From IMG/VR virus record IMGVR_UViG_3300045988_149468, positions 32,001 to 96,000 of that record: a stretch of 64,000 bases of DNA; one strand, given 5' to 3'. Below are positions 10,186-49,315 of the stretch, piece by piece (positions within the stretch are counted from its first letter, which is position 1; each line of letters starts with the position of its first letter). The position numbers were made by a program, and so were the translations under genes. This stretch comes from a virus. Below the pieces are notes generated by a model. It saw only the letters and a list, made by a program, of their open reading frames with translations. It did no database searches and was not told the origin of the DNA.

Positions 10186-10218
10186 AACTCTCTATGAAAA
10201 TAGGGAGTTATTTTTTTT
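10186..10218 (+). terminator. rho-independent terminator
   Basis: 10-bp stem AACTCTCTAT/ATAGGGAGTT (one G.U pair), GAAA loop, then T8. Confidence 0.75.
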
Positions 10219-10253
10219 ATGTATTTTTAAATTTTATTTTAAAAGGAGGAATT

Positions 10254-29395: not shown

Positions 29396-30658
29396 ATGGA
29401 AAGAGAATATACTTTAATAATACAAAAACAAAAAAGTGTATTAAGTGAAGCATTATCTATTTCTAAAGATGATGATGGTGTTAGTGTTTATTTAAGATTA
29501 TTAGGTTCTCCATTCTTTGATATAAGTAAACATAATTACACATATTCTAAAATATCAATAACAGATAAATATAAAGTAATAAAAGAAAATGCAATAACAC
29601 CTATAGTTGATAATAGGATATTATTTAAAATAAATAATGAATTAACTAATGTTTTAGAAATAGGAGAATATCAACTATATATAAGATTAATTGATGATAG
29701 AGGTCAATATTATACTTTACCACCAATTAAAATGGAATGTATAAAATCAAATGAATTATCAACATTAACATTAGATGAAGGAACGATAGAAAAAGGTAAC
29801 GTTGATAATGTATCTATTCAAAGTTTAGGAGAGGATATTCCATCTTATTTAACTGATGGTAGTTATAATAGAACAATATGGCAAACCAATGATTTGATTA
29901 CTGGAAATAAAATGAATAAAATTGAATCTGTTCTTAATGATGAAGTTGATAATAGTATTCAGTTTGTTCAAGCATTAGAATTATTAAATAAAGAAAAAGG
30001 TTATAACCTTAAAGAAGGAACTTCAGTTAATCCTATTAACATATATAACCTTCCAGTAGGAAATTACATTCTTAATGGATATATAAAAGATTTATCAAAT
30101 AGTACAGTACAAGAAGTTGAAAATGCAAGATATTATGTAGTATATAAAGATGAAGATTGTAGTTATATATTAAGAAATTTATCTACGGATAAAATTCCAA
30201 TTTTATTGAAATACGATTCATACCATAATCAAGTATTAGCAGTCACAGGGCAAGTTAAGATACTTAAAACGGCATCAGATACGTTACAATTAACAAATGA
30301 CGAATTTCAATTTTTAAGCATTGGCGACTTGGTTAAATTGAAATTACCAAAGAATATTGACTTTACTAGAATACATTTATTCATATTACCCACATCAGAT
30401 TTAACCATTACTTTTCCTAAGATTTCATGGGAAAATTACCCATTATTAAACCAAGATATGTTTACCGAAATAACACTAACTTGTTATAATAATGTATGGT
30501 ATGGGAAAGCACATACATTTGAAAAATCAACTACAACAACAACTTATAGTGAGGAAATGACATTTAATGTTAATTCTGTAGGCTGTGATTTAGATTATGA
30601 TGATTATAAAGATATAATTAAAAATACAGTCGGGGAGGAATATATTAAAAATGAATAA
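29396..30658 (+). CDS. baseplate upper protein-like (BppU_N Ig-like N-terminus)
   Basis: N-terminal pattern ...GEYQLYIRLIDDRGQYYTLPPIKMECIKS, typical of BppU_N. Confidence 0.5.
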   Translation: MEREYTLIIQKQKSVLSEALSISKDDDGVSVYLRLLGSPFFDISKHNYTYSKISITDKYKVIKENAITPIVDNRILFKINNELTNVLEIGEYQLYIRLIDDRGQYYTLPPIKMECIKSNELSTLTLDEGTIEKGNVDNVSIQSLGEDIPSYLTDGSYNRTIWQTNDLITGNKMNKIESVLNDEVDNSIQFVQALELLNKEKGYNLKEGTSVNPINIYNLPVGNYILNGYIKDLSNSTVQEVENARYYVVYKDEDCSYILRNLSTDKIPILLKYDSYHNQVLAVTGQVKILKTASDTLQLTNDEFQFLSIGDLVKLKLPKNIDFTRIHLFILPTSDLTITFPKISWENYPLLNQDMFTEITLTCYNNVWYGKAHTFEKSTTTTTYSEEMTFNVNSVGCDLDYDDYKDIIKNTVGEEYIKNE

Positions 30659-31502
30659 TTGTAAAAAATATATGGGTTTAATAACTGAATCAATACAATC
30701 GTATATAGATAAAGCCTTAGAAAAATTTGACCTTTCAATAAAAAAGATTAAAGACAATGTTCCTGCTGATGTTGATTTTAATACTACTAGTAGAAAAATA
30801 CAACTTATGTCCAAGGATGGTGTAAGACTAGGTGAAGGTGTTGTATTGCCATCTACTGATTGGGGTGGCAATATAGACACAGCTAAATTTGCTAGAACAG
30901 AAGATGTTCCCACTAAAATGTCACAATTAACAAACGATAATAATTATGTTACTGAAAGTGATTTAGTTGATAAAGGATATCTTACGTCACATCAAGACAT
31001 TAGCGGTAAAGTTGACAAAGTAGAGGGAAAACAATTAACCACTAATGATTATGATGATACTGAAAGAAACAAACTTAAAAATCTATATGACAATCAATTA
31101 GCTGATACAATTATGATAAATGGAAAACTTTATTTAGTAAAAAAAGACGGTGCAATTATTGGTGAGGGTACAACTATATATAATAATACTACTGATGAAT
31201 TAACTGACTATGCTAAAAAAAATGAAGTTGCAAATGATTTATTTTTAAATTCTTCAACAAATAGATTACAACTTATAGATACTACTGGTAAAAAAATTGG
31301 CAATGGTATATTATTACCAATTAACAGTGGTACTGTCGATGGAAGTTTGGCAACTATTTATAAAAATAGCCTTCCGACTGCAACAAACGATGATGATGGC
31401 AAAATAGCGATAAAGAGAGTTGCTGGAAAAGATGATACAGTTCACATATGTATTAGACAATCTAATGGAACAAGTGCTTGGAAGAAAATAATGTTAGAAT
31501 AA
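30651..31502 (+). CDS. tail fibre protein with repeated x-L-x-L-x-x-x-D-G-x-x-I-G-x-G motif
   Basis: Repeats IQLMSKDGVRLGEGVVLPS, LYLVKKDGAIIGEGTTIYN and LQLIDTTGKKIGNGILLPI. The same motif occurs in 42797-45229. Confidence 0.5.
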   Translation: MNNCKKYMGLITESIQSYIDKALEKFDLSIKKIKDNVPADVDFNTTSRKIQLMSKDGVRLGEGVVLPSTDWGGNIDTAKFARTEDVPTKMSQLTNDNNYVTESDLVDKGYLTSHQDISGKVDKVEGKQLTTNDYDDTERNKLKNLYDNQLADTIMINGKLYLVKKDGAIIGEGTTIYNNTTDELTDYAKKNEVANDLFLNSSTNRLQLIDTTGKKIGNGILLPINSGTVDGSLATIYKNSLPTATNDDDGKIAIKRVAGKDDTVHICIRQSNGTSAWKKIMLE

Positions 31503-33369: not shown

Positions 33370-36300
33370 TTGAGTAAAATACATATGTTAAATGGTAACA
33401 ATTCTAATTCTTTTACAGGCATTCCTTCACTACCTAATAATTTAGTTTTACAAACTATCACACAAGCTAAAGTAAATGAATGGAATAAAAAAATCGGAGA
33501 AAAAGAATTAAATTCTGCATTAGATTCTATCAATAATAAAATATCATCTATTAATAGAGATATACAAACATTAAATAGTGCAGATGAAGTTCATACTGCT
33601 GATATTAAAACTTTAAAAGCTAAATTAAATGAGTTAAATTTAGCTTTAGGAGATATAATTGATACCACATTTGAAAATAATAAGTATTTAAGTAATATAG
33701 CACAAAACATAGGTAAAATAAATGAATTTATCAATAGTGGATACACAGATGCTATAATAAATTTAAATAAGAGACTGGATGGCAAAGCTGATAGTTACAT
33801 TCAATCGACTCCACCACACCCAGAATACAGAAATGTAGCAGATAATAACAACTATAATGTATGGGTTGGAGATTTATGGAGAAATCCTAAAGAAAATAAA
33901 GATTATAAATATGTAAAAATTGAAATTAATCCTAATGCTTATAGTTATTACTGGGAAGAACAAACTGGTGCTATACCAGATGGATTATTTGACATGATAG
34001 ATGGAAAATCAAGTATATATTTTTCTAAACCTTCATCTTATAATGCTAGAGATTGTTGGATATTAGAGAGCGATGATGTACATCCACCTAACAAAATGGG
34101 TACTTTGTTATTCGCTAATGCAACTAGAAAAATGTATGTTGCTAGTGACTGGATTGATTTAATGCAATATGTCACTAAAAACGATTATGAGAATTATATT
34201 AAAAAGATAAATGACTTCATTAATAAAACATATAATAATGAAATTAAAAATCTTAATGATAAAATAGATGGAAAAGCTGATAGTTTTGTACAAGAAACAC
34301 CTCCACATCCCGAATATTTTGGAATAGAAGAAAAAACACAATATGACGGTTGGATAGGAGATTTATGGAGAAAGTCATCTACAGGAGCAGATTATAGATA
34401 TCTACGAAGACAACTTTCTAATGGTAATTATGATTACTACTGGGAGTTACAAACTACTTCAATACCAGATGATCTATTTGATAAAATAGATGGAAAAGCA
34501 TCAATTTATTTCACAAAACCAACATCTTATTCTAAACGAGATTGTTGGATTCTTGAAAACGATAGTGTTCATTACCCAAATAAAAAAGGAACAATTCTTT
34601 TTGCAAATAGATCAAATACAGTATATAATCCAGATGATTGGGTAGATTTATTATCTTATGTGACAGATGATGATTATGATGTTATAAAATCTAAACTTGA
34701 AAATTTTATTAATAATACTTATAACGATGAAATAAAGGATATAAATAATAAAATAGATGGAAAAGCTAATAGTTATGTGCAAGAATATCCACCACATGAT
34801 GAATATTTAAATGTTGAACAAACAAGCGAATATGACGGTTGGTTGGGTGATATTTGGAGAAAAATTTCAAGTGGTGAAGACTTTAAATATGTTAGAATTA
34901 AAAATGTAGATGGAACATACAGTTATCGCTGGGAAGCACAATCAGCATCTATACCTGATAGTTTGTTTGATTTGATAGATGGGAAAGCTACTATATTTTT
35001 TAGTAAACCAGACAGTTATTCAGCAAGAGATTGTTGGATATTAGAAAATGATACAGTGCATCCCCCAAATAAAAAGGGAACAATGTTATTCTCTATTAAA
35101 GATAATGACCATTATGATGCTACTGATTGGGTGGATTTAATATCTTATATAACTAGAGGAGAGTATGAGGATTATAAAAAAGAAGTAGAAAATTGGATTA
35201 ATAATACCTATACTGAAGAAATTAAAAATATAAACAGTAAAATTGATAATAAAGCCGATAGTTATGTGCAAGAAGATAAACCTCACCCAGAGTATAATAA
35301 TATAGCTGAAAATACCGAATATAATGGCTGGCTCGGTGATATTTGGAGAAAAATTTCAAGTGGAGCTGACTATAAATATTTAAGAAGTCAAAATAAAGAT
35401 GGTACATTTAATTATTATTGGGAATTACAAACAACAACTATCCCAGATGATATTTTTGATAAAATAGATGGTAAATCTTCAATTTATTTTAGTAAGCCCA
35501 CAAGCTATTCAATACATGACTGCTGGATACTTGAAAATGATAATGTTCACCCACCTCATAAAAAGGGAACTCTTTTATTTGCAAACAAATCAAATAGTGT
35601 ATATGATGCTGACGATTGGATTGATTTAGTTTCTTATGTAACCGAAGATAAGCATAACGAAATTGTTACTAGATTAAATGAATTTATTAATAATACTTAC
35701 ACAGATGAAATTAAAAGAATAAATAGTAAGATTGATAATAAAGCAAATTCTTATGTTCAAGAAGCTAGACCACATGAAGAATATTATAACGTAACACAAA
35801 ATATTACTTATGATGGTTGGTTGGGTGATATTTGGAGAAAAATTTCAAGTGGTGAAGACTTTAAATATGTTCGTGTACAAGGTACTTCATCTAATACTTA
35901 CACATATAGATGGGAAGCTCAATCTATGTCAGTTCCCGATAGTTTATATGACTTAATTGATGGTAAAGCTACAATTTATTTTAGTAGACCAGATAGCTAT
36001 TCGATAAGAGATTGTTGGATTCTTGAATCAGATGAAATACATCCACCTAATAAAAAAGGTGAAATGTTATTTGCAAAGAGTAGTAATACATCTTATAATT
36101 CAGCGGATTGGGTCGATTTATTAAGTTATATAGACAAAAGTCAACATGATGACTTAGTTAATAGAGTTAATACATTTATTAATAATACCTATACCAATGA
36201 TATTAAAGATATAAACAATAAAATAGATAATAAAGCTAATAGTTATGTTCAAGAAAACTCACCTCATGCTCAATACACTACTTCAAGTAAAGTGACAGAG

Positions 36301-38136
36301 TATGAAGGTTGGATAGGCGATATATGGAGAAAACCCTCAACTTCTGAAGATTATAAATATGTTAGAGTAGATAATCCAAATGGAAAATATACTTACAAAT
36401 GGGAATTACAAACTACTAAAATTCCAGATGAATTATATGATAAAATAGATGGTAAGGCTAGTATTTATTTTTCTAAACCGTCTAGTTATTTTGCACATGA
36501 TTGTTGGATATTAGAAAATGACACAGTATATCCACCATATTTGAAAGGGACTTTATTATTCTCTAATTATGATAATACAACATATGATGCTAGTGACTGG
36601 GTGGATTTAGTAAATTATATTAACAAAACAGACTATAATGAAGGAATCAATAATGTAACTAAAAAATATGAAGAATTGTCAGATAGATTTTCATGGCTTG
36701 TTACGAATGGTTCAAGTTCATCAAGCTTAATTATAACAGATAAATTAATACAAGCAATAGCAACAAGCAACATACAACTTTCAGCTAAAAAAATATTAAT
36801 CAACGGTCTTTTAGAAGGAGTAGGCTGGAGAGTTGATGAGGAAGGAAATTTTGTTGTTAATGATTTAAATATTGAAGGTACATTAACTTGTCAAAACTTC
36901 TCAACAGAAAATTTAGTCGGAGCAACTATAGGCAGGGTATTAGATAGTGATCAAGATTACTATGCTAGTTCATCTAACAGTATAACTGATATATTAGATG
37001 ATATACCTTATAACTTAAATGGTTATAAAGTTAATATATATGTTACTGAAAATTTAACGGAAGATATAACATTGAGAAAACATATAAATGGCTCAATTAA
37101 AATATTCATGTGTGGTTATCCATTATATGGTTATATTCATACAATGCACAACAATTCAATATATGAGATTTACGGTGGAAGTAGCGAAAGTGATTCAACT
37201 AAAGCTAAAATAATGCCTTACACTGGTTATGTTCTAAATTCTTATGTTTATACGATTCTATGCTCTTATTCCCCAAATATTTATTTGAAAAATTTAATAA
37301 TTTATGGTGATAAATCAAACACATCAAAAAATGTTGGTGTTGGTGGAACTCAAAAATCTGATATTATAATGAACAATGTATCATTTATAGGTTGTAAGAG
37401 CAACTGTAGAACATATTCATTAACTAGAGTTCATTGTGATGCATCAACAGGTAGAGCTAGTGGCGTAGGTTGGTATGCAGGTACAGGAAGTAGAATAAGT
37501 TTTGGTGCAGGAACTCAAGCTGGTGGTTCTACTGATAACACAGACACAGGTTCTAATGGTCAAGTATTATCTAGTGGTGTGACGTTTAGTTCATCTGCTG
37601 ATAGTGGTAGTAATAATAATACTGGTGGAACTAATAGTACTGTTAAAAGTGTCACTTATTATCCTAAGTACTCCGACAATTATCGTAGTACCCATTATTA
37701 CAGTTGGAGAAAAGATGGCGTTGCAAAACAAGGTAGATGGAGTAAAAATGGTGCAGAAAGTGGCAGTTGTAATGGATACTTCTTTTTTGGAAATCAATTC
37801 TCAGAACTTAAAGGATGTAATATAACCAAAGTTGTAATTACATTATCAAGAAAGTCTGGTGTAGGTAATTCAGCTAGTTGTAATCATCCTATTTATTATC
37901 ATACTTACAGTGGTAGACCAAGTTCTAACCCTTCAATGCAAAGTTGTAATGCAAGTGTCAATATGGCATGGGGAGAAACAGATTCAGCAACAATAACAAA
38001 TTCTAATGTTTTAACTGGTATAGCAAACGGCACAGTTAAAGGGTTCGGTATTAAGTCTACATATGATTCCTCACATTACAGTGGTATTAGTACTTGCAAA
38101 GTTCGAATTTATTATACTGGTGAAATAGAAGATTAG
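33370..38136 (+). CDS. giant tail fibre (1,588 aa) with six tandem repeats of about 165 aa
   Basis: TTG start after AGGAGGTG. The repeats are followed by a non-repetitive C-terminal region with a G/S/N/T-rich linker. Confidence 0.7.
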   Translation: MSKIHMLNGNNSNSFTGIPSLPNNLVLQTITQAKVNEWNKKIGEKELNSALDSINNKISSINRDIQTLNSADEVHTADIKTLKAKLNELNLALGDIIDTTFENNKYLSNIAQNIGKINEFINSGYTDAIINLNKRLDGKADSYIQSTPPHPEYRNVADNNNYNVWVGDLWRNPKENKDYKYVKIEINPNAYSYYWEEQTGAIPDGLFDMIDGKSSIYFSKPSSYNARDCWILESDDVHPPNKMGTLLFANATRKMYVASDWIDLMQYVTKNDYENYIKKINDFINKTYNNEIKNLNDKIDGKADSFVQETPPHPEYFGIEEKTQYDGWIGDLWRKSSTGADYRYLRRQLSNGNYDYYWELQTTSIPDDLFDKIDGKASIYFTKPTSYSKRDCWILENDSVHYPNKKGTILFANRSNTVYNPDDWVDLLSYVTDDDYDVIKSKLENFINNTYNDEIKDINNKIDGKANSYVQEYPPHDEYLNVEQTSEYDGWLGDIWRKISSGEDFKYVRIKNVDGTYSYRWEAQSASIPDSLFDLIDGKATIFFSKPDSYSARDCWILENDTVHPPNKKGTMLFSIKDNDHYDATDWVDLISYITRGEYEDYKKEVENWINNTYTEEIKNINSKIDNKADSYVQEDKPHPEYNNIAENTEYNGWLGDIWRKISSGADYKYLRSQNKDGTFNYYWELQTTTIPDDIFDKIDGKSSIYFSKPTSYSIHDCWILENDNVHPPHKKGTLLFANKSNSVYDADDWIDLVSYVTEDKHNEIVTRLNEFINNTYTDEIKRINSKIDNKANSYVQEARPHEEYYNVTQNITYDGWLGDIWRKISSGEDFKYVRVQGTSSNTYTYRWEAQSMSVPDSLYDLIDGKATIYFSRPDSYSIRDCWILESDEIHPPNKKGEMLFAKSSNTSYNSADWVDLLSYIDKSQHDDLVNRVNTFINNTYTNDIKDINNKIDNKANSYVQENSPHAQYTTSSKVTEYEGWIGDIWRKPSTSEDYKYVRVDNPNGKYTYKWELQTTKIPDELYDKIDGKASIYFSKPSSYFAHDCWILENDTVYPPYLKGTLLFSNYDNTTYDASDWVDLVNYINKTDYNEGINNVTKKYEELSDRFSWLVTNGSSSSSLIITDKLIQAIATSNIQLSAKKILINGLLEGVGWRVDEEGNFVVNDLNIEGTLTCQNFSTENLVGATIGRVLDSDQDYYASSSNSITDILDDIPYNLNGYKVNIYVTENLTEDITLRKHINGSIKIFMCGYPLYGYIHTMHNNSIYEIYGGSSESDSTKAKIMPYTGYVLNSYVYTILCSYSPNIYLKNLIIYGDKSNTSKNVGVGGTQKSDIIMNNVSFIGCKSNCRTYSLTRVHCDASTGRASGVGWYAGTGSRISFGAGTQAGGSTDNTDTGSNGQVLSSGVTFSSSADSGSNNNTGGTNSTVKSVTYYPKYSDNYRSTHYYSWRKDGVAKQGRWSKNGAESGSCNGYFFFGNQFSELKGCNITKVVITLSRKSGVGNSASCNHPIYYHTYSGRPSSNPSMQSCNASVNMAWGETDSATITNSNVLTGIANGTVKGFGIKSTYDSSHYSGISTCKVRIYYTGEIED
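33716..36650 (+). repeat. six tandem in-frame repeats of about 490-495 nt
   Basis: Units start near 33716, 34201, 34693, 35186, 35675 and 36165. Each encodes ...FINNTY..EIK.IN.KIDGKA.SYVQE..PH.EY....YDGW.GDIWRK.S.G.D.KY.R.....Y.Y.WE.Q...IPD.L.D.IDGK..IYFSKP.SY..RDCWILE.D.VHPP.KKGT.LFA...Y...DW.DL.SY. Confidence 0.85.
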
Positions 38137-39136: not shown

Positions 39137-39472
39137 ATGGATATTGAAACTATTTTAATATTAATTGTTTTATTATTGGTTTTAATATTTTCAGTATATC
39201 AATTTGTAAAATTAGGCAAAGTAAAACAAATAGAAAATATAAAACAATGGTTAATATATGCTTGTCTTGAAGCTGAAAAAATATTAGGTAGTAAAACAGG
39301 GCAAGTGAAACTTAGATATGTATATGATTTATTTATAAGTAAATTTAAATTTGTATCTTATTTTATATCGTTTGAATTATTTAGTAAATGGGTAGACGAT
39401 TCATTAATAGAAATGAAAGATATGATAAATAACAATGATTCAATTAGAAAAATAGTAGAAGGTGATAAATAA
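39137..39472 (+). CDS. LL-H-type holin-like protein
   Basis: A single N-terminal TM segment (ILILIVLLLVLIFSVYQFV) followed by LEAEKILGSKTGQVKLRYVYD, as in the phage holin LL-H family. This is from memory. Confidence 0.55.
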   Translation: MDIETILILIVLLLVLIFSVYQFVKLGKVKQIENIKQWLIYACLEAEKILGSKTGQVKLRYVYDLFISKFKFVSYFISFELFSKWVDDSLIEMKDMINNNDSIRKIVEGDK

Positions 39473-40302
39473 TGACAGTAAATAAACCAGTTATTGTAGA
39501 AAAATGGCAAAAGAAAAATAAATATGGTAGACCAGGAACAAAATTAAATTATACAAAAGTGGCAATACATTACACAGGACAAGCAGATGTTAAAGGTATA
39601 AGTACAGTTAGCTATTTTAACAATGTAGTTGCAAATGGAACAAAAGTTAATGGTAAATACATATATGCTTCAGCACATTTTGTTATTGATTTAGACGGAA
39701 CAATATATCAATTAATACCTCTAAATGAAATGTGCTATTGTACAAATTCAGCTAATAGATATGCTATTGGAGTTGAAGTTGCAACAACAGGAAAAGATAA
39801 TCATTACACAGATGCAACTTATAAATCAATGGTGCATTTATGTGCTTGGTTATGTGATAGAAAAGGACTAAATTGTAAAAAAGATATAATAAGACATACA
39901 GATGTTGTAGGACGTGCTTACAAACTATGCCCTATTTACATGGTTTTAAATCCTAGAAAATACGAACAATTTAGATTAGATTGTTACAATTTAACAAAAG
40001 GTAAAATACAAGTTAAAGATATAGTTAACTGTACAAACGGTAAAGGTAAAATAACTCAAGTTCCTAATACTTCAATAGATAAAAACATCTCAACAAAACA
40101 ACAATTTATAAGAATATTACAAGATGTTAATGTCCATTCAACACCAGATTTCGATGCTAGTTCAATATGTGGTAAAGCCAAAAAAGGTGAGGCATTAACA
40201 ATAATTAAAAAAATTGAAAGAAAAGGAACGGATATGTATTATGTGAAAGCAGGATATTATATAACTGCATCAACAAAATATGTAGAAGTATTTGAAAGAT
40301 AG
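39472..40302 (+). CDS. endolysin: N-acetylmuramoyl-L-alanine amidase (Amidase_2/PGRP) plus SH3-like C-terminus
   Basis: VAIHYTG, SAHFVIDLDGTIYQ, IGVEV and IIRHTDV...KLCP motifs. C-terminus: IRILQDVNVHSTPDFDASSICGKAKKGEALTI. Confidence 0.85.
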   Translation: MTVNKPVIVEKWQKKNKYGRPGTKLNYTKVAIHYTGQADVKGISTVSYFNNVVANGTKVNGKYIYASAHFVIDLDGTIYQLIPLNEMCYCTNSANRYAIGVEVATTGKDNHYTDATYKSMVHLCAWLCDRKGLNCKKDIIRHTDVVGRAYKLCPIYMVLNPRKYEQFRLDCYNLTKGKIQVKDIVNCTNGKGKITQVPNTSIDKNISTKQQFIRILQDVNVHSTPDFDASSICGKAKKGEALTIIKKIERKGTDMYYVKAGYYITASTKYVEVFER

Positions 40303-40313
40303 AGGTGATTTAT

Positions 40314-41102
40314 ATGATTGGGATAACAACTGCTAATTTAAATGTAAGAACTGGTACTGACACAAATTATACTTCTATTGCAATATTACCTAAAGGTACA
40401 AAAGTTAATATATTAGAAGAAAATGTTAAAACAGGTTGGTACAAAATACAATTTGATGAGATTTATGCTTTTGTGTCAAGTAAATATGTTAAAATACAAT
40501 CTAATAAACCATCATCTAAAACACAAAGTAATAAAGAAGAATATAAAAATTGTATTAATGAACAAGGTATAAAAGACGGGCATAAATATGTTTACACATT
40601 AAAGAATTGTAAAATAACAGCATATGGATCTAATAGTTCTAGTGCTTGTAAAATACCATTACAACTTGGTCACACTTGCGGAACTTTCAATCTTCCTTAT
40701 AATACTAAAATATACATTCCTTCAATGAAAGGATTTAAATTTACAGATGGTAATGGTAAAACAGCAGTTTGTGATGGAGTATTTATTTGTAATGATACAG
40801 GTATAGGTTGTGCTGATTTTGACTTATACATGAGTACATACACCGACTATAACGCTGAAAGAAATCTTGGTTCTACAAAATATGAAGATGTATATATTTT
40901 AGAATATGGTAAAGGTTATGGTTATGCTTGGAGTTATACTCAATCATATGAATTTGCAGATAAAAATAATAGATTAGAATTATATAAAAAAGCATTTAAA
41001 GACTATATAAAAAATGGCGGGACATTAATTAACTTTTTGAAATTTAAAGATATTGATAAAAATATTAGAAAATCAACATATTGGAAGAAATTAAATAATT
41101 AA
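40314..41102 (+). CDS. second lysin: SH3_3 plus 3D (MltA/RlpA-like) domain
   Basis: ATG 40314 follows AGAGGTG. SH3: LNVRTGTDTNYTSIAILPKGTKVNILEE..GWYKIQ. The C-terminal 170 aa are a paralogue of the Tal C-terminus (CKITAYGS.., CNDTGIG, DFDLYM, ...LINFLKFKDIDKNIRKSTYWKKL). Confidence 0.7.
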   Translation: MIGITTANLNVRTGTDTNYTSIAILPKGTKVNILEENVKTGWYKIQFDEIYAFVSSKYVKIQSNKPSSKTQSNKEEYKNCINEQGIKDGHKYVYTLKNCKITAYGSNSSSACKIPLQLGHTCGTFNLPYNTKIYIPSMKGFKFTDGNGKTAVCDGVFICNDTGIGCADFDLYMSTYTDYNAERNLGSTKYEDVYILEYGKGYGYAWSYTQSYEFADKNNRLELYKKAFKDYIKNGGTLINFLKFKDIDKNIRKSTYWKKLNN

Positions 41103-41159
41103 TATACAAAAAAGAGGACTCACATTAAGGGTTCTCTTTTTTATGAGGGAGATGATAAT

Positions 41160-42143
41160 GTGAGTAATATTTATAATAAATATGATACAGCAGAAAAATA
41201 TAAAGAAGTAAATCAATATAATAAAGATTTATTAGATGAATTTATTTTAAATTTAAAAGCTGAAGGGAAAAAAGATGGAACAATTAGAATGTATAAAGCG
41301 AATATAAAAATTATGTTTGTTTATATATTAGAAGAATTAGGAAATAAACCTATTTCACAACTAAAGAAAAAGCAATTTAGAAATTATGTTTTATGGCTAC
41401 AACAAAAAGGATTAAGTGTAGCTAGGATCAATAATTTAAAATCAGCTTGTTCATCAATGTTATCCTTTGCTTGTGATGATGATGATTATGAAGAAGATAT
41501 TCCAGTTAATCAAATTAGAAAATTAAAACCTATTAGCAAAGAAGCACGAAGGGAAATTATATTTTTAACAGATGAACAAATAACAAAAATAAGAGATGAA
41601 TTAATAAAAAGAGAAAAATATCAAATAGCATTATTACTTTCATTAATGTATGATAGTGGTGCAAGAAGAAATGAATGTTATCAAATAATGAAAGATGACA
41701 TAGAAATAGATAAGCATATGACAAAAAGAAAAGTGACTGGGAAAAGAGGTAAAACATTTAATATATATTATCATGATTGGACTATTGAATGTTATAAAAT
41801 GTATATGTCAAGTAGAGGCGAGGATAATGTGAAAGAATTATGGGTAACTCAAACAGGTGAACCAGCATCATATGAAACCCTATATTCATGGATAATTTAT
41901 TGCAGAAACATACTTAAAGAACTTGAAGGGGAGGAAATACCTTTTAATCCTCATACATTTAGGCATTCTTTTGCAACTAATATGACAAATGGAACACATT
42001 ACTTATGTAGGCAATTAAATAAAAAGTTTTCATTAGAAGAAATTCAAATATTATTAAACCATAGTTCAATAGAAACAACAAACAGTTATATTAAAAGTAG
42101 AGATGAAGAAATTATAAATAATGCTTTCGGTTGGTCAAATTAA
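41160..42143 (+). CDS. tyrosine recombinase/integrase 1
   Basis: GTG start after AGGGAG. SGARRNE (Arg), HTFRHSFAT (H-x-x-R), LLNHSSIETTNSYIK (His, Tyr). Confidence 0.8.
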   Translation: MSNIYNKYDTAEKYKEVNQYNKDLLDEFILNLKAEGKKDGTIRMYKANIKIMFVYILEELGNKPISQLKKKQFRNYVLWLQQKGLSVARINNLKSACSSMLSFACDDDDYEEDIPVNQIRKLKPISKEARREIIFLTDEQITKIRDELIKREKYQIALLLSLMYDSGARRNECYQIMKDDIEIDKHMTKRKVTGKRGKTFNIYYHDWTIECYKMYMSSRGEDNVKELWVTQTGEPASYETLYSWIIYCRNILKELEGEEIPFNPHTFRHSFATNMTNGTHYLCRQLNKKFSLEEIQILLNHSSIETTNSYIKSRDEEIINNAFGWSN

Positions 42144-42279
42144 AGGATTAAATACATTAAGAGATTTTTTAAAAGGCTTATATTCGCCAATATATAAGTG
42201 ATTTTAAAGAAGAATAATTAGTACGTGGTATTAAATCTTATTGATAAAATAGAATTATAAATGAATTGAGGTGAATTTG

Positions 42280-42783
42280 ATGCTCGATAAAAGATATAAA
42301 GCTATGAAGTTAGATTTAATTTCAGATAAAGAAGATAATTTACTTATGAAGTTTTCATTAAGTGATAATCAAACTTCAGATTTTTATATTAACATAACTA
42401 GAGATAACAGTAAAATTAATTTATCAGATTACAAGACAACGCTATATATAGAAACTCCAAACAAAGAAATATTAAAAAAAGAACTTACAGAATATGACGA
42501 AGCGAGTAATTTATATTATTGTAATTTAGAAACAGAATATAAAAATGAAGTAGGGGAATATCATTGTCAAATCATGATAGAAGATAAATATACTAACGAA
42601 AGGATTATTCCTTTGAATAATTTTAAATATAAAGTATTTGATGACACTATATCTAAAAGTGGGACAACTCCAGATATTCCAAGTGGCGGAGCAACTATTA
42701 ATTATGATCCTGTAACAGGTAATTTAACAATACGCTCAAATAGTTTAGATTATAATTCACAATCAGGTAATTTAAAAATTTAA
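42280..42783 (+). CDS. BppU_N Ig-like domain protein (third paralogue)
   Basis: ATG 42280 follows GAGGTG. Pattern GEYHCQIMIEDKYTNERIIPLNNFKYKVFDD. Confidence 0.5.
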   Translation: MLDKRYKAMKLDLISDKEDNLLMKFSLSDNQTSDFYINITRDNSKINLSDYKTTLYIETPNKEILKKELTEYDEASNLYYCNLETEYKNEVGEYHCQIMIEDKYTNERIIPLNNFKYKVFDDTISKSGTTPDIPSGGATINYDPVTGNLTIRSNSLDYNSQSGNLKI

Positions 42784-42796
42784 AGGAGGTAATAAA

Positions 42797-45229
42797 ATGG
42801 CAGAAATTGATATACTTAGTATAAATAATAAAAAAATACAAGATGTAGAAGCTAGAAAAGATATTCAAGTAATTAAAGAAAATAATACTGCAATAAAACA
42901 GGATATAAATGACATTAAAGCTAGTATAGGTACAGAAGCATTAACTACTACTGCTAAAGATTTGAAAGGGGCAGTTAATGAAGTTAGTGCACAATATAAA
43001 GATATTGCGAACTTATCTCTTGCACTAGGAAAAGATGGACTATTATATATTAAAAAACAAGATGGAACACTTATAGGAACTGGTGTTAAAGTTAATAATG
43101 ATACTGATTTATCTAAAGTAACTATGCAAATAAATGGTAATACGTTAATATTATTGAATAATGGAACTCAAATAGCATCTGTAGATTTGCCTAACAACAT
43201 GAGTGCTACCGATGTATCTAACTTAATAAAAAAAGGTGTTTCAGAAACTAACTATAATGCTTTAGATACTACGGATAAACGTATTATAGGTGGAATTAAT
43301 GAAATTAATATACACTTAAACAGTACGGCGAAAAAAACAATCGTAGAAGGAAATAAAATATATTTAGCAAAAAGTGATGGAACAAAATTAGATACAGGAA
43401 CTATATTACCTACAGGTGGAACTGGTAAACCTTATGATGACACTTCCATAAAATCTGATATAAGCAATATTAAAAATGACTTAGGTACTGCACAACTAAC
43501 TACAACTGCTCAAAATGTTAAAGGAGCAATAAATGAAATTGATGCAAAATGCGATGATATTGCAGTCAAAACTATTACAACCGAAGAGAGAACAAAATTA
43601 ACTAACTTAAAAAATTATGATGACACAAGTATAAAAACAGACATAAATAATATTAAGACTAATTTAGGTACTGCACAACTAACTACAACTGCTAAAGATG
43701 TTAAAGGTGCAATTAATGAAGTTAATAAAAAAATTGGAACTGGGGTAGCTTATGATGACACTGCGATAAAATCTGATATAAATACCATCAAAACTAACTT
43801 AGGTACAGACAAATTAAATACAACTGCTAAGGATTTAAAAGGGGCAGTTAATGAACTTAATACACAATATAAAGATATCGCATCTAGGACTATTACAACC
43901 GAAGAGAGAAATAAATTAAATAGTCTAAATAATTATGATGACACAAGTATAAAAAATGATATACAAACAATTAATACACAATTAGGAGATATTGCGAACA
44001 AATTTACAACCGAACAAACAGATAATAATTTTATATTAAAATATGGTGATAAAATAATAGCAACTATTCCTATAAACGGAACATTAGTTAATTATGGTAG
44101 TATAGTTATATCTTGTAATGAAATTTTAGAAATAAACGAAGGTGAAACATTAGACATTGAAGTTTATTTAAGTTCAAAACCTACAAATAATCAATCTATA
44201 GTTATTACAACAAGCAATTCTAATATAACTACATCAGTAAGTGAATTAACTTTTACCCCTAATAACTATGCAACAAGTCAAATTATTACTTTAACTGCTA
44301 TACATGATGTTAGTTCATTTGATGATAAAAATTGTTTAGTTACATTTGCAAGTGAAAATGTAGAAAATATAACTATTACTGTTACTATAAAAAATACTGA
44401 TGTTCAACAGTCACATTATATTACAGATGGATTAAGTTTATACTATGATTTTACAGAAACTCCAACAAACCCAACAACTGTTTATGATAAAGTTAATAAT
44501 GTATCTATATATAATAAAAATTATACAGCTGATAATTATACAAGCAATGGTGTGTATTTGATAAACGGTGGCGGTTCAGAAGCATATAAATTTGGCTCTA
44601 GTAGTGTTAGTGTTTTCGAATATCAAACAATGCCTGAATTTAACAATTTCTTGAATAAAATCAAAGAAGGTAATGGATTGACTATTGAGTATTTCGGACA
44701 ATATATTCCTGTATCTATCATGTATGCATATAATAGTGGGGTTAATGCATCGGGTACAGGAGCAATTGGTGGTGGATATTTAACAAAATACGAGTCTCTA
44801 GGTGGTGTTACCTTTAAATATTTAAATACATCTAATGAAACAACTAGCGTTAGTTTAGCTCAAAGTGATAAAGCAACAAAAGATGGTCAATCAATACTTG
44901 CTTATTCCGCTGATAATAAAGCTGATACTTATATACATCTAGTTATTACTGCTGATGAAACAGGAAAATTAACATGGTATTTAAATGGAAATGTTATGAG
45001 TAATACTGCTACTGCAACTGATTTTGCATCGTGGGATTATGATACTATGTTTAAAGCTAATTATTGTATGCTTGTTAGATGTGGAGTTGAAGATACAAAT
45101 AGACTTATATACCCCGCAACAAGTATAAAAATATATAATAGAGCTTTAATACAAGATGAAATAAAAACTAATTTAGAGTATGAAATAAGCAAAACAAATT
45201 TTGTTAATTCAGCAAGTGTTACTCCCTAG
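42797..45229 (+). CDS. tail fibre with repeated DDTSIK...LGTAQLTTTAK.VKGAINE units and a C-terminal LamG/ConA-like region
   Basis: SD AAAGGAGG. At least five units of about 45-60 aa, and the same DG-x-x-IG-x-G hairpin motif as 30651-31502. The C-terminal jelly-roll call is weak. Confidence 0.6.
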   Translation: MAEIDILSINNKKIQDVEARKDIQVIKENNTAIKQDINDIKASIGTEALTTTAKDLKGAVNEVSAQYKDIANLSLALGKDGLLYIKKQDGTLIGTGVKVNNDTDLSKVTMQINGNTLILLNNGTQIASVDLPNNMSATDVSNLIKKGVSETNYNALDTTDKRIIGGINEINIHLNSTAKKTIVEGNKIYLAKSDGTKLDTGTILPTGGTGKPYDDTSIKSDISNIKNDLGTAQLTTTAQNVKGAINEIDAKCDDIAVKTITTEERTKLTNLKNYDDTSIKTDINNIKTNLGTAQLTTTAKDVKGAINEVNKKIGTGVAYDDTAIKSDINTIKTNLGTDKLNTTAKDLKGAVNELNTQYKDIASRTITTEERNKLNSLNNYDDTSIKNDIQTINTQLGDIANKFTTEQTDNNFILKYGDKIIATIPINGTLVNYGSIVISCNEILEINEGETLDIEVYLSSKPTNNQSIVITTSNSNITTSVSELTFTPNNYATSQIITLTAIHDVSSFDDKNCLVTFASENVENITITVTIKNTDVQQSHYITDGLSLYYDFTETPTNPTTVYDKVNNVSIYNKNYTADNYTSNGVYLINGGGSEAYKFGSSSVSVFEYQTMPEFNNFLNKIKEGNGLTIEYFGQYIPVSIMYAYNSGVNASGTGAIGGGYLTKYESLGGVTFKYLNTSNETTSVSLAQSDKATKDGQSILAYSADNKADTYIHLVITADETGKLTWYLNGNVMSNTATATDFASWDYDTMFKANYCMLVRCGVEDTNRLIYPATSIKIYNRALIQDEIKTNLEYEISKTNFVNSASVTP
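43430..43990 (+). repeat. intragenic direct repeats of about 180 nt
   Basis: TTAGGTACTGCACAACTAACTACAACTGCT recurs at 43481 and 43664. TATGATGACAC recurs near 43434, 43617, 43750 and 43934. Confidence 0.6.
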
Positions 45230-47153
45230 TGCGGCTACAAGTTATTCTTATACAGAATTACCTTATGCTGTAAATACAATTCCTGCATCTGCTATAAATG
45301 ACTGTGAAATTTTAGGAACTGTTGAGAATGACGAAGTAGCCCAAATTAATGATAATTATATAAGTTGTTATAAAAGTGGAGAAACAAATATAAACATTCA
45401 AGTGAACTATAAAGCATCAAAGATCTTTAACATAGAAGTTCCTTTAAAAGTTATTGATACTGTTGATTATGAAGCAACTTCTACTAGAACAATTGAACCT
45501 ACAGGTATATCAATAGTAAATAAAATTACTGAATTGAAATTAGGGGAAGAATTTGTCCTATTGGCAATACTATATCCTTACCATCCTTATATGGATAATT
45601 TAATTGAGTTTACATCAAGTGATGATTCAATATGTTCTGTTAAGTTTGGTGTTTTAAAAGCTAATAAAATAGGAACTTGTACTATTACTGCAACTGGTAT
45701 TGGAACAAACATATCAGAAAGTTTTAATATAAACATAATAGCGAATGAAGAAGAAAGTTTATTAGATTCGGAGATATATAACGTTTTATTACCTTGTGTT
45801 ACCACAAATGGTCAATTATATAATGACGGATCCAATGAAGAAGAGACAACTTATGCTATCCAAGATTTATTAAGCTATGCAAGTGAAAATAATTATAAAA
45901 AAATAGTATTTCCAAAAGGAACTTATTCTGTAACGGCTGATATTTATGGATCTGATGTCATTGGACCTACATTGTTTTATGTACCATCTAATTTAATAAT
46001 TGATTTTTCAGACGCTATAATTCAAATGCAACCAAATTCACATACTTTATCTCCAAACGGAACTGCTGGAACTGGCGGTGGATATACGACATTTATGTTT
46101 GATAACAATTGTCAAAATAGTAAAATAATAAATGCTGATATTAGAGGTTGTAGAGAATTAATAGATTATGATATAGCAACAACCGGAGAACAATGTAAAA
46201 ATGTAAGTTTTTATGATGCTGTAAACTGTTCTTTAGAAAATTGTAGTATAGGAAATAGTTGTGGTTTTAATATGGCTATGATAAGAAATACATACAATGG
46301 TTGGGATGGAAGAATATTTATAATGCCAAGTAACATAGAGGCTGGAGGAATAGCAGATGACGGTTCAAAAGATGATGTAAATACATCATGGAATTGGAGA
46401 ACTATAAATATGTTAAGTCTAGATAAATTAGGAGATAGACTTAGTTTTGATATCGGAAATTATCAAGGTTGGGGTGGTTATCAAATAGCAGGTAGATTAT
46501 ATGATATCGCTTTCTATGATGAAAATGAAACCTTTATAGAAATTATGAGAAATTGTAGGGTTTATTGTAGATATAATAGACCAAGTAATTCAAAATATTT
46601 TCATATAGTTTTTCATCAAGAAGAACAACCTACAGAAGGTGTTACTGATTATGGATATTTATATACACTTCAAAGTACAAAAGAACCTTATAGATGTTCT
46701 ATAAAGAATTGTGTTATACATGATAACTATTCTATAGGAATAGCTATAGTTGGTGGAAAAAATAATACATTTGAAGGAAATACATTTATAAATAATAAAG
46801 GTCGTGACCCAAATTGTCATCTTGATTATGAAGATGGTAGAGAGGCTATGATAGGCGATATATGGAGATATAATTCATTTGATAGCCGAAGCGGATATTT
46901 ATGTATTATGGCAGGAAACGCTATGACATTTAGAAATAATATATTTAACTGTTCTGTACAATTTACAGGAAGATGTGAAGGTTGGAGAGTTTATAATAAT
47001 AAATTCAATGGTTCAACAATAACTCAAGGAACTCAATCTGATTCGGTTTTTGCTTTTAACTTATTAAATAAAACTACACTTGAAAACCCTTCGTACTATC
47101 ATGGAGAAAATTCTCAATATAAAGTACATTATTTTAATAATACTGTGTTATAA
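45201..47153 (+). CDS. Big_2 plus right-handed beta-helix (pectate-lyase-like) protein, putative depolymerase
   Basis: Ig-like CSVKFGVLKANKIGTCTITATG. Beta-helix rungs NCSLENCSIGNSCGFN and IKNCVIHDNYSIGIAIVGGKNNTFEGNTFINNKG. There is no SD or ATG at the 5' end, and the frame opens at 45189. See the frameshift finding. Confidence 0.65.
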   Translation: MLIQQVLLPSAATSYSYTELPYAVNTIPASAINDCEILGTVENDEVAQINDNYISCYKSGETNINIQVNYKASKIFNIEVPLKVIDTVDYEATSTRTIEPTGISIVNKITELKLGEEFVLLAILYPYHPYMDNLIEFTSSDDSICSVKFGVLKANKIGTCTITATGIGTNISESFNINIIANEEESLLDSEIYNVLLPCVTTNGQLYNDGSNEEETTYAIQDLLSYASENNYKKIVFPKGTYSVTADIYGSDVIGPTLFYVPSNLIIDFSDAIIQMQPNSHTLSPNGTAGTGGGYTTFMFDNNCQNSKIINADIRGCRELIDYDIATTGEQCKNVSFYDAVNCSLENCSIGNSCGFNMAMIRNTYNGWDGRIFIMPSNIEAGGIADDGSKDDVNTSWNWRTINMLSLDKLGDRLSFDIGNYQGWGGYQIAGRLYDIAFYDENETFIEIMRNCRVYCRYNRPSNSKYFHIVFHQEEQPTEGVTDYGYLYTLQSTKEPYRCSIKNCVIHDNYSIGIAIVGGKNNTFEGNTFINNKGRDPNCHLDYEDGREAMIGDIWRYNSFDSRSGYLCIMAGNAMTFRNNIFNCSVQFTGRCEGWRVYNNKFNGSTITQGTQSDSVFAFNLLNKTTLENPSYYHGENSQYKVHYFNNTVL

Positions 47154-47186
47154 TGAATAAAAAAAGACATTGTCATGGGGGAAATT

Positions 47187-47780
47187 ATGTTTACAGATTT
47201 AAAACAATTATTAATTCAACAAAAATTAAAAAGAGAACATAAAAATTTTTATATTTATAGACCATCATCAATAAGTTTAGCAAAAACTTCAAAGATACAA
47301 ATAAAAGGAAGTTTAACCTTTAATGATGTATATTCTTCAAACCAAAAAAGAAAATTAAGCATATTAGTTATGGGAGAAGATTCTAAATTAGAAGTTAATG
47401 GAAATTTTTCGTTTTTTAGTGGTTGTAGAGTTGGGGTTTTAAAAGGGGCTACACTTTCATTGGGTAACGGATATATGAATTTTGATTCTAAAATATATTG
47501 CTATAATAATATAAAAATAGGGAATAGAGTTTTTATATCAGAAGGAGTAACAATAATAGATTCAGATGTTCATAGTATATCTAATAAAGATGTATCTGCT
47601 CCTATTGTAATTGGAGATAATGTTTGGATAGGAATAAATGCAACTATATTAAAAGGTGTTACTATTGGAGATGGTGCAGTAATAGGTGCTGGAGCAGTAG
47701 TTACTAAAGATATTCCATCTAAATGTTTGGCTGTAGGAAATCCAGCTAAAGTAATAAAAGAAAATATAGAATGGAAATAG
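47187..47780 (+). CDS. hexapeptide-repeat (LbH) O-acetyltransferase
   Basis: IGNRVFISEGVTIIDSDVH...VIGDNVWIGINATILKGVTIGDGAVIGAGAVVTKDIP...GNPAKVIK. ATG 47187 follows GGGGGAA. Confidence 0.8.
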   Translation: MFTDLKQLLIQQKLKREHKNFYIYRPSSISLAKTSKIQIKGSLTFNDVYSSNQKRKLSILVMGEDSKLEVNGNFSFFSGCRVGVLKGATLSLGNGYMNFDSKIYCYNNIKIGNRVFISEGVTIIDSDVHSISNKDVSAPIVIGDNVWIGINATILKGVTIGDGAVIGAGAVVTKDIPSKCLAVGNPAKVIKENIEWK

Positions 47781-47805
47781 ACTAGAAATTAATCTAGTCT
47801 ATTTT
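47777..47805 (+). terminator. rho-independent terminator
   Basis: 9-bp stem TAGACTAGA/TCTAGTCTA, 6-nt loop, then T5. It overlaps the stop codon. Confidence 0.7.
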
Positions 47806-47954
47806 TAATACGCAGTTAGTTCGCAATTTAAAAATATTGCGTATATAATGTGATCAACAGAATATTCATTATATATTTTAAATATCATGTATAGAATAAA
47901 CAAATAAAGGATAAATTATTATTAGTTATTCTATTTGTATGTATTTTTATTATA

Positions 47955-47992
47955 ACCCTTTAGTGATTATTTGCTAAAGGGTATTTTTTTTT
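47955..47992 (+). terminator. rho-independent terminator
   Basis: 9-bp stem ACCCTTTAG/CTAAAGGGT followed by A and T9. Confidence 0.7.
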
Positions 47993-47998
47993 ATTTAT

Positions 47999-48027
47999 TT
48001 GACAATCTTTCAGATATTTGTTATCAT
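47999..48027 (+). promoter_or_regulatory. sigma-70-type promoter
   Basis: TTGACA, 17 bp, TATCAT. Confidence 0.45.
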
Positions 48028-48132
48028 AATTAAAGATATAAATAATATTCTCATATTAACTTACATTATCAAATTTTCAATAGAACTATTTTATTTTTTT
48101 AATAGTCCTATTATTTTTTTGTTTAAAATGTA

Positions 48133-48182
48133 TTGAAAATAATAACTAATTATGTTATAATTCAATTATAATAATTAATAAG
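48133..48182 (+). promoter_or_regulatory. promoter plus conserved leader
   Basis: TTGAAA (48133-38), 17 bp, TATAAT (48156-61), 11 bp, AATTAATAAG (48173-82), then AGGAGAG and ATG 48199. Confidence 0.55.
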
Positions 48183-48198
48183 AGGAGAGTAAAGCAAT

Positions 48199-49182
48199 AT
48201 GAAGAATGATAATGAAAAACTAATAAAACAAATAATGAATCATATAAAAAATAATGTTATTACCAAAGATGAAATAGAAAAAATATTATATGAAACTATA
48301 AGAGATTTTAATATTGAAATAAATATTCATCAAAAACATAATAATCAAGATATTCTCGATGAATATAAACAAGATATGGAAACTTTAGATTATTCAAGTG
48401 GAACTATTAGAAACAGAATGTATACCTTAAAATATTTCTTAGATTATATAAACAAAGAGATTCCTCAAATTACAGTAGTTGATTTAAAAGCTTATTTAAA
48501 TTTTAAAAAGAAATCAGTAAAAACTTCAACTATAAATGGATTAATTTCAGTAATAAAATCATTTTTCAGCTGGTTAGTAGAAGAAGAATACATAGATAAA
48601 AATCCAACGAAGAAAATAAGAAAAATAAAAGAACCACAAAGAATTAGAGAGCCTCTGTCTATAGAAGAAATGGAAAATTTAAGAATGTGTTGTAAGACAG
48701 ATAGAGAAAGAGCTTTAGTTGAATTTATGTTAGCGACAGGTATGAGAGTTTCTGAAATTCAAAAGACAAACATATTTGAATTGGATCTTTCTTCAAATAA
48801 ATTAAAAACAATTGGGAAAGGAAACAAAGAAAGAATTATATTATTTAATGATAAATGTAAATTATATTTAAAACAATATTTAGACAATAGAAAAGGTAAA
48901 AATGAAGCTTTGTTTATTTCTGAAAGAAAACCGTACAGAAGACTTGGAGTTAGAGCAATTCAAAAGATATTAACAAATATATCAAAAAGAAAAACAATTC
49001 TTCCCATTGTATATCCTCATAAATTAAGACATACTTTTGCTACATCACTATTTAATAGTGGAGAAGACATTGAAACTGTTCAATTTCTTTTAGGACATGA
49101 AAACATAACAACAACTCAAATATATACAAAAACATCAATGGATAAAGTTAATTATCAATATAATAAATGTTTGATTGTATAA
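48199..49182 (+). CDS. tyrosine recombinase 2 (XerC/D-like)
   Basis: ATGMRVSE (Arg), HKLRHTFATSLF (H-x-x-R), LLGHENITTTQIYTK (His, Tyr). It has an N-terminal SAM-like core-binding region. Confidence 0.8.
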   Translation: MKNDNEKLIKQIMNHIKNNVITKDEIEKILYETIRDFNIEINIHQKHNNQDILDEYKQDMETLDYSSGTIRNRMYTLKYFLDYINKEIPQITVVDLKAYLNFKKKSVKTSTINGLISVIKSFFSWLVEEEYIDKNPTKKIRKIKEPQRIREPLSIEEMENLRMCCKTDRERALVEFMLATGMRVSEIQKTNIFELDLSSNKLKTIGKGNKERIILFNDKCKLYLKQYLDNRKGKNEALFISERKPYRRLGVRAIQKILTNISKRKTILPIVYPHKLRHTFATSLFNSGEDIETVQFLLGHENITTTQIYTKTSMDKVNYQYNKCLIV

Positions 49183-49315
49183 ATATTCTAAAATAAAGTT
49201 TTTAACCTAACTTTTTAGATCAACTCTTAGTTTTTACTAAGGGAATTTTTTTTATTTATTTTTAGTAATATTTTTAAGGAATATCACATATAATTCAGTA
49301 AAAGGAGGGATAATT

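Follow-up and report, generated by a model that had tools for sequence, protein, structure and literature searches.

The window analysed here is a stretch of 64,000 nucleotides (nt) of viral DNA, positions 32,001 to 96,000 of the IMG/VR record IMGVR_UViG_3300045988_149468. At the end of its late operon lies an accessory, hypervariable receptor-binding slot, flanked by two tyrosine recombinase genes that we call Int1 and Int2. The fixed parts of the slot are a BppU_N adaptor and the first 72 residues of a tail fibre; its changing part is the DNA from 43013-47815. The same 29-bp sequence, hereafter the joint, stands at both borders of this cassette in direct orientation. The exchange unit runs from joint to joint, and cassettes delimited in this way pass between unrelated backbones. 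We hold it highly probable that the slot carries a site-bounded exchangeable cassette; for the whole statement, in which general recombination is the catalyst of the exchange, we put the probability at about 0.45. New here is the conserved, dyad-symmetric pair of 29-bp joints, which defines portable receptor-binding cassettes in many gut phages; the slot as such is of a known kind, a variant of modular fibre exchange.

The hypervariability of the slot is seen in its close relatives, for which we took L001 and ten neighbourhoods (L035-L044) that encode an identical Int2 protein. Twelve near-identical backbones carry about 11 different cargos at the slot. Flanks in the relatives are 96-99.8% identical to those of the window and keep one order: Int1, BppU_N, cargo, a spacer of ~380 nt, Int2 where present, and genes for proteins of 61, 124, 83 and 734 amino acids (aa). 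Each cargo consists of one to seven genes (2-6 kb) unrelated to those of the others, with domains that include Metallophos, GH16 with Big_2, GDSL esterase, pectate lyase, CotH and Acyl_transf_3. An earlier note on this DNA had suggested an exchangeable host-range module, and these cargos between near-identical flanks bear that out; the open reading frames it described, and their order, were also found in place.

The right border of the cassette is sharp: in 11 of 11 relatives homology resumes at 47816-47822, 36-42 nt past the acetyltransferase stop codon. On the left, alignment of 12 first-slot fibre genes reveals a shared anchor, and all of them diverge straight after KDIA(N), at residue 72. 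Measured from the recombinase genes, the variable segment begins 870 nt past the Int1 stop codon, beyond the BppU_N gene and 72 fibre codons, and stops 355 nt ahead of the Int2 start. Because the 5' joint is in frame, a newly arriving body becomes fused to the resident anchor. The earlier note also suggested that the recombinases bracket and drive the unit, which is not supported: the limits of variability lie inside, Int1 belongs to the backbone and Int2 is an independent indel.

The two joints were recognized as a direct repeat of 28 nt (24 of 28 identical) at 42982-43009 and 47814-47841. By eye, no long flanking repeats had been noticed before; this holds for the Int1-Int2 bracket, where repeats stay at chance level, but not for its interior, where the 28-nt repeat lies. 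The core of the joint, CRCAAT-N8-ATTGYG, has three copies in the 64-kb window, all of them in the cassette, with 0.01 expected. Within the window, joints are used by the accessory slot only.

The spread of the joint was followed by an exact-pattern scan of IMG/VR, in which stretches of ~8 kb each were read around the joints; counts from this census are among the matches listed and are lower bounds. The joint is carried by at least 119 stretches, on contigs of 20-50 kb and 105-140 kb, and its copies form two classes, coding 5' copies and non-coding 3' copies. Copies of the 5' class (at least 48 distinct ones, spacer TTAAAGAT) stand at the junction between a conserved fibre N terminus and a variable body, and the N termini are of at least eight types. 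Those of the 3' class (at least 96 distinct ones, spacer TTAAAAAT) lie in non-coding DNA behind the last cassette gene, next to unrelated right flanks; they occur in 63 left-context classes and 30 right-context classes. In the 3' class the conserved sequence exceeds the searched 20-mer by 6 nt on the upstream side (TTAGTT) and by 3 nt on the downstream side (WAC), beyond which conservation falls to background. Where a locus has several copies of the joint, all are on one strand.

Between a 5' copy and the next 3' copy there are at least 55 distinct cassettes in at least 48 clusters, 1.2-4.8 kb in length. The cassettes of L064 and L136 are 99.7% identical over 1224 nt, and those of L105 and L128 99.8% identical over 2099 nt; in both pairs the two flanks are unrelated right up to the joints. 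Moreover, one body (NNQPTDL...) is joined to at least six different N termini, each time at the joint. Empty slots also occur, in which an N-terminal stub ends in a 3'-type joint (L036, L040, L026, L054 and L085). An assembly artefact was considered and judged unlikely: the pattern is found in independent samples and with different assemblers, and the k-mers of the final assembly exceed the joint in length. Neither the joint sequence nor a cassette system of this sort was found in the searchable literature.

Joints are also seen in other slots. In three relatives of 125-140 kb (L063, L050 and L102) fibres bounded by the joints occur at two places: in the main baseplate slot, where the 29396-30658 homologue precedes them, and near the neck genes, in a slot that immediately precedes the 10868-11332 homologue. 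L001 has a second joint-bounded slot, with a 489-aa fibre, between a 111-aa gene and the amidase gene (L001 6189-8917 compared with window 39525-40077), and the catalytic domain of its amidase differs from that of the window amidase.

Variants and look-alikes of the joint were encountered as well. A hybrid joint at L077 14261, compared with L060 5049-5093, has the usual 3' left arm followed by the TTGAATCA variant's spacer and right arm; it looks like a 25-nt deletion between two CRCAAT arms, and the arms may be recombination-prone. A lineage whose Int1 is 50% identical has three direct repeats of ~230 bp (L002 1566-1801, 8050-8285 and 10967-11204; also L004-L007 and L010), and each of them consists of a ribosome-binding site and a 70-aa N-terminal module (LKKLIKMYNEKYGDTLG...) that heads a variable-body gene. 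One of these genes starts right behind the Int1-like gene, and the right border of the variable slot in this lineage has related dyads, CACAAT-YTGAATCW-ATTGCG. An unrelated conserved element, CTCAACTTT-CGCAATTTAAAAATATTGCG, has the same palindrome in another context in the chromosomes of acetogenic Clostridium, namely C. ljungdahlii, C. ragsdalei and C. carboxidivorans (L167, L175, L187 and L188). A role of the joint as a hairpin was rejected by inspection: the non-pairing combination CACAAT...ATTGCG is common, so arm pairing is not under selection. The joint is also unlike what we take to be the Firmicutes dif consensus.

Table 1. The slot, its joints and neighbouring genes (positions in the window).
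Feature	Position	Strand	Basis or remark
Amidase_2 endolysin	39472..40302	+	Pfam Amidase_2 4e-24; PHROG endolysin; end of lysis genes
SH3_3 protein	40305..41102	+	Pfam SH3_3 8e-12
Int1, Xer-like tyrosine recombinase	41160..42143	+	Phage_integrase 3e-19 and SAM-like N-domain; NCBIfam
BppU_N adaptor, conserved left part of the slot	42271..42783	+	Pfam BppU_N 8e-15
Tail fibre, 810 aa	42797..45229	+	PHROG tail fibre 3e-11; 4-5 internal repeats (repeats D1-D3)
Fibre N-terminal anchor, aa 1-72, conserved	42797..43012	+	Alignment of 12 first-slot genes
5' joint, in frame	42984..43012	+	TTAGTG CACAAT ATAAAGAT ATTGCG AAC; encodes VSAQYKDIAN
Replaceable cassette: fibre body, Ig/beta-helix protein, acetyltransferase, hairpin	43013..47815	+	Unrelated DNA in L001 and L035-L044
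Internal joint-like dyad within fibre repeat	43977..43996	+	CACAAT-TAGGAGAT-ATTGCG
Ig/beta-helix protein, 645 aa	45216..47153 (alternative start 45201)	+	Pfam Beta_helix 8e-9; PHROG tailspike 1e-12
Hexapeptide-repeat O-acetyltransferase, cassette passenger	47175..47780	+	Pfam Hexapep 4e-15; NCBIfam WbbJ/Maa-like, below cut-offs
Hairpin and T-run, 3' end of cassette	47780..47806	+	Read from the sequence
3' joint, non-coding	47816..47844	+	TTAGTT CGCAAT TTAAAAAT ATTGCG TAT; homology to 11 relatives resumes here
Conserved spacer	47845..48120	+	Strong terminator 47955-47991; promoter-like site 47999-48027
Int2 unit, clean indel	48121..49244	+	Promoter 48133-48161, gene 48199-49182, terminator 49224-49251
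Conserved right-hand genes, 61/124/83/736 aa	49316..52427	+	Behind fibre genes in all relatives

As to how cassettes move, we lean, tentatively, towards general recombination at short homology over site-specific recombination. A double crossover, with one exchange in each joint, would carry cassettes from one co-infecting or resident phage to another; host RecA or a phage annealing protein would catalyse it, with the joints acting as short portable homology arms. Int1 and Int2 would be bystanders, Int1 being the post-endolysin backbone recombinase of this class of phage. Further breakpoints lie in the fibre gene at 42883, 43189, 43325 and 43731, and the amidase region of L001 has been swapped, which shows that ordinary mosaic recombination is active here. 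First-slot joints serve as junctions despite a degenerate left arm; linkage between joint position Y19 and the right flank is incomplete; and a search of the listed stretches for a recombinase or nuclease gene linked in cis to the joints found none, only lysis and structural genes recurring downstream. All three observations count for general recombination.

Several points weigh against this reading. A double crossover within two homologies of 17-29 bp is expected to be rare, and two Xer-like recombinases with intact active sites are encoded within 1 kb of the joints. One spacer base consistently distinguishes the 5' copies from the 3' copies (48 G versus 96 A among the matches listed). Moreover, the joint is a 9-8-9 dyad, GTTCRCAAT-N8-ATTGYGWAC, whose symmetry reaches into the non-coding flanks; homology alone does not require such symmetry, which suggests a dimeric DNA-binding protein. 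Variant sites retain the symmetry (CGTAAT...ATTACG in L001 and L007), and the same arms also occur with other spacers. Finally, that the adaptor, the fibre and the beta-helix protein form part of the virion, where they would add a second receptor specificity, is presumed.

The same features of the joint, its symmetric conservation in non-coding DNA, its fixed G/A difference, its alternative spacers and its symmetry-preserving arm variants, speak for the joints being core sites of a site-specific Xer-like tyrosine recombinase, with host-recognition genes undergoing recombinase-mediated cassette exchange. We regard this as possible but doubtful. The enzyme would be Int1, Int2 or a recombinase supplied in trans by the host or another phage, and phages without the enzyme would carry passive cassette arrays; the one-base spacer difference would make deletion of the cassette unfavourable while leaving it free to be swapped with a donor that has the same two joints. 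Breakpoints confined to the joint are in keeping with this, position R2 being linked to the left context and positions +21 and +23 to the right context, as are the precise site-to-site cassettes in unrelated flanks and the simple Xer type of Int1 and Int2, both with intact active sites beside the joints. Homologues of Int2 are found ~400 nt past the 3' joint in three lineages, and related dyads bound the variable slot beside the 50%-identical Int1.

On the other side, 115 of the 119 listed stretches have no Xer-like gene near the joints (Int2-like in 4/119, Int1 in 0/119) and no consistent family downstream, and Int1-family contigs overlap joint-bearing contigs just once. L001 lacks Int2, L026 and L034 lack a nearby Int1, and all of them have joints and variable cargo. 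Joint-like dyads are absent within 6 kb of other Int1-family genes, both the SEP9/VPE25-like ones and most of those in IMG/VR, but for one Clostridium-type lineage. The degenerate left arm of first-slot sites and the partial unlinking of Y19 from the right flank count against a site-specific enzyme too, and to our knowledge no such inter-phage cassette system has been described. Were the joints recombinase core sites, this would be a natural form of cassette exchange in which any body, with its passenger enzymes, plugs into any anchor: an integron-like host-range system working by translational fusion.

A different proposal concerns this one cargo only and is compatible with any exchange mechanism. 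The cargo might double as a lysogenic-conversion or superinfection-exclusion unit, its acetyltransferase O-acetylating the polysaccharide recognized by the fibre and the beta-helix enzyme, which we think unlikely. The acetyltransferase is of the WbbJ/Maa/WcaF type and shares the cassette with a beta-helix protein predicted to be glycan-active, and another cargo has an Acyl_transf_3 gene. However, all its NCBIfam scores are far under the cut-offs, the gene belongs to the late operon instead of a unit expressed in the prophage, the enzymes of other cargos are of quite different kinds, and the genome layout matches that of lytic SEP9/VPE25-type phages.

Very improbable, in our judgement, is that a sequence-specific nuclease, of phage homing type or from the host, cuts the joints of a competitor and that gap repair from a co-infecting genome then converts the cassette. 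Dyad-symmetric 29-bp targets and precise replacement from site to site would suit such an enzyme, and there are two HNH endonuclease genes in the right arm of the phage. Donors, however, have the same joints and would be cut as well, no nuclease gene is linked to the joints in the listed stretches, and HNH enzymes usually have asymmetric targets.

That the Int1-Int2 block is itself mobile, excised or inverted by both enzymes at flanking sites, can practically be dismissed: its one argument is the gene order. Against it, repeats at the edges of the block, direct or inverted, are at chance level, and the variable part begins and ends well within it. Phages lacking such a block still have Int1, conserved together with the lysins, and Int2 comes and goes alone. 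Orientation is identical in 12 relatives, there are no reverse-strand gene ends, and no inversion or excision variant was found.

Returning to general recombination, the two recombinase genes are probably bystanders of cassette exchange. Both proteins are 327 aa long and belong to the tyrosine recombinase superfamily; the core-binding domains detected are SAM-like only, and mutual identity is merely 29%. The catalytic residues are R169, K195, H265, R268, H301 and Y310 in Int1 (Pfam Phage_integrase 3e-19) and R183, K207, H274, R277, H300 and Y309 in Int2 (Pfam Phage_integrase 3e-35), each set being conserved in at least 97% of ~120 relatives. NCBIfam scores are below the cut-offs for XerA (108 for Int1 and 209 for Int2, against 220) and for XerC (99 and 199, against 335). 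With every NCBIfam equivalog cut-off missed, both appear to be Xer-like in architecture only.

Relatives of Int1, with 41-45% identity over 95-99% of its length, are present in 161 isolate phage records from Staphylococcus, Enterococcus, Lactococcus, Lactobacillus, Bacillus and Geobacillus. In SEP9 and VPE25 the Int1 relative lies directly behind the endolysin gene as the last gene of the late arm. Int1 is therefore in the usual place of its family, a SEP9/VPE25-type post-endolysin recombinase by homology and by position, and the unusual feature of the window is the ~10 kb downstream of Int1, not where Int1 lies. SEP9 and its relatives are described as lytic, with the role of the recombinase called unclear, and VPE25, for which no lysogens were detected, is thought to be obligately lytic too (PMC6507118, PMC4999554). 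Int1 is 96-99.8% conserved in all 12 close relatives and is a backbone gene. It adds one more to the enigmatic recombinases of large lytic Firmicutes phages, in a well-mapped context. The end of the late arm is not the invariable place of the family: at three other loci (L214, L218 and L221) an Int1-family gene has an M23 peptidase or lysis gene on one side and the tape-measure gene on the other. Four relatives (L036, L037, L040 and L044) have a 1.35-kb IS200/IS605-type element inserted at window ~41147-41151, in the ribosome-binding region just upstream of Int1; the element has a TnpB/OrfB gene only.

The Int2 unit (1124 bp) is exactly missing from the 97%-identical L001, with the junction within a T-run, and L001, without Int2, still carries a different cargo. 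The indel holds a TTGAAA-17-TATAAT promoter and a hairpin/T-run terminator of its own; with these, and with its presence or absence, it is an insertion of the moron type. Int2 would thus be an optional gene unit for an Xer-like integrase or resolvase, gained or lost as an independent indel. The Int2 protein is unchanged on more than 86 contigs. Relatives with 83-89% identity lie ~400 nt behind fibre genes in two other lineages with no Int1 nearby, and a third large lineage has neither Int1 nor Int2 within 10 kb.

Among the slot proteins, the BppU_N adaptor is present in every close relative at 96-99% identity. Its Pfam match is above cut-off and the fibre gene begins 13 nt further on, as for an adaptor of the BppU type; the same pairing of BppU_N and fibre genes is found in L008 and L009. 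The earlier note had taken the adaptor as a paralogue of two tail-module genes. For 10194-10832 the likeness is weak but real (BLASTP 1e-4, Pfam matching both), and for 29396-30658 it finds no support in the sequence (E=0.37, no Pfam match); in a relative, the homologue of 29396-30658 directly precedes a fibre gene. The resemblance it saw between the cassette fibre and the product of 30651-31502 turned out to be weak or marginal (4e-4). As for the lysins placed ahead of Int1, the Amidase_2 endolysin is one, whereas the SH3_3 protein, regarded as a second lysin, may instead be tail-associated: over its C-terminal ~190 aa it has 65-70% identity to proteins whose genes immediately precede joint-bearing fibre genes on 20-50 kb phage contigs.

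The Ig/beta-helix protein was modelled with AlphaFold2 (AF2; predicted local distance difference test 88, predicted template modelling score 0.89). The model has two Ig-like domains and the right-handed parallel beta-helix of tailspikes and depolymerases, and Foldseek matches it with probability 1.0 to GH110 galactosidases, AlgE4 and the HK620, Det7 and CBA120 tailspikes. The protein is hence predicted from its model to be glycan-active, glycanase-like and similar to depolymerases. Its homologues often form the C-terminal portion of proteins of 1000 aa, and one of these proteins carries a BppU_N domain; a search of IMG/VR for close relatives found none. The hairpin at the 3' end of the cassette recurs at the ends of many unrelated cassettes.

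The window is part of a ~140-kb human-gut phage of Clostridium type. Over 18.4 kb it matches a human-gut metagenome contig of 139,830 bp with 100% identity, and it has a GC content of 26%. The closest isolates belong to the 130-kb C. difficile phiCD211/LIBA6276 group, with capsid identity of just 34-38%, and the phage is a distant relative of phiCD211. Its leftward arm encodes HNH endonucleases, a dUTPase, a RuvC-like resolvase, a ribonucleotide reductase and a DNA polymerase, and its genome is therefore laid out like those of large siphophages of the SEP9/VPE25 type. Neither the 40-50 kb segment in a megablast search of isolate phages and plasmids nor the joint region and the N-terminal module in distant blastn searches of isolate phages had a match; a search of the window for known RNA elements, and for tRNA genes that might serve as att sites, found none. 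A scan of bacterial genomes for hosts by way of the joint returned 27 matches, mostly by chance; only Clostridium sp. 1001270J_160509_D11 and two metagenome-assembled genomes of Clostridiales/Firmicutes have the joint in its true context.

In SEP9/6ec (Staphylococcus) and VPE25/VFW (Enterococcus), as here, the Int1-like gene follows directly after the lysin gene in a rightward late arm, and the leftward arm has replication and nucleotide-metabolism genes. There the recombinase gene is the last of its arm, whereas here the adaptor, the cassette, Int2 and four conserved genes follow (~10 kb). The exchange itself resembles that in T-even phages, and in phages of Klebsiella and others, in which an N-terminal anchor is likewise kept and the receptor-binding body swapped, with short border motifs as crossover points and general recombination as the presumed engine; for the T-even distal tail fibre, recombination at the 'His box' is said to have been described by Tetart et al. 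in 1998. The slot differs from these systems in that a conserved, non-coding element of 29 bp forms its 3' border, that a single dyad supplies both borders, and that whole cassettes of several genes pass between phages whose backbones (20-50 kb and 105-146 kb) are unrelated.

Short direct repeats also flank the cassettes of Borrelia vlsE/vls (17-bp repeats) and Neisseria pilE/pilS (the 3' Sma/Cla repeat), where, as here, one repeat is coding and one 3' and non-coding, and where gene conversion proceeds with no dedicated site-specific recombinase. Those systems serve antigenic variation within one bacterial genome from silent donor arrays, whereas in the slot the donated cassettes come from other phages and the repeats have dyad symmetry. 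Mu Gin, P1 Cin and the R64 shufflon share with the slot an in-frame site at the constant/variable junction of an adhesin or fibre, and R64 Rci is a tyrosine recombinase encoded beside its own sites. They invert segments between inverted sites in one genome; here the sites are direct and the variation is between genomes. An invertible switch or shufflon was accordingly rejected: no inverted repeat exceeds chance, there are no reverse-strand open reading frames of note, the sites are on one strand and orientation is the same in 12 relatives. The recombinase-controlled switching envisaged in the earlier note has no support either, given that no inverted repeats, no reverse-strand gene ends and no inversion were seen in 12 contigs.

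Integrons too have discrete cassettes with a 3' site, in arrays that often lack a recombinase of their own; an Xer-like gene is adjacent here. The sites of the slot are sequence-conserved double-strand dyads, as opposed to the structure-defined attC hairpins of integrons, and the 5' site is in frame. An integron was rejected on the scores of Int1 (39) and Int2 (94) against a cut-off of 265 (TIGR02249/PRK15417), on the type of site, on the spacing of the cassette genes, which lie 0-21 nt apart with no sites between them, and on the co-orientation of the recombinase genes with the cargo.

Host range is the main limit on the use of phages and on understanding phage-bacterium dynamics in the gut. 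The joints mark where receptor-binding modules are exchanged, across phages of differing size and backbone, and they offer a testable handle on host-range reshuffling, be it by short homology or site-specific. They also amount to a design rule for plug-in fibres in Clostridium-type phages and allow receptor-binding cassettes to be catalogued in metagenomes.

Elsewhere in the window, about six tandem repeats of ~489 nt (163 aa) with mutual identity of 65-70% occupy 33715-36628, inside a gene for a 1588-aa protein (33370-38136).

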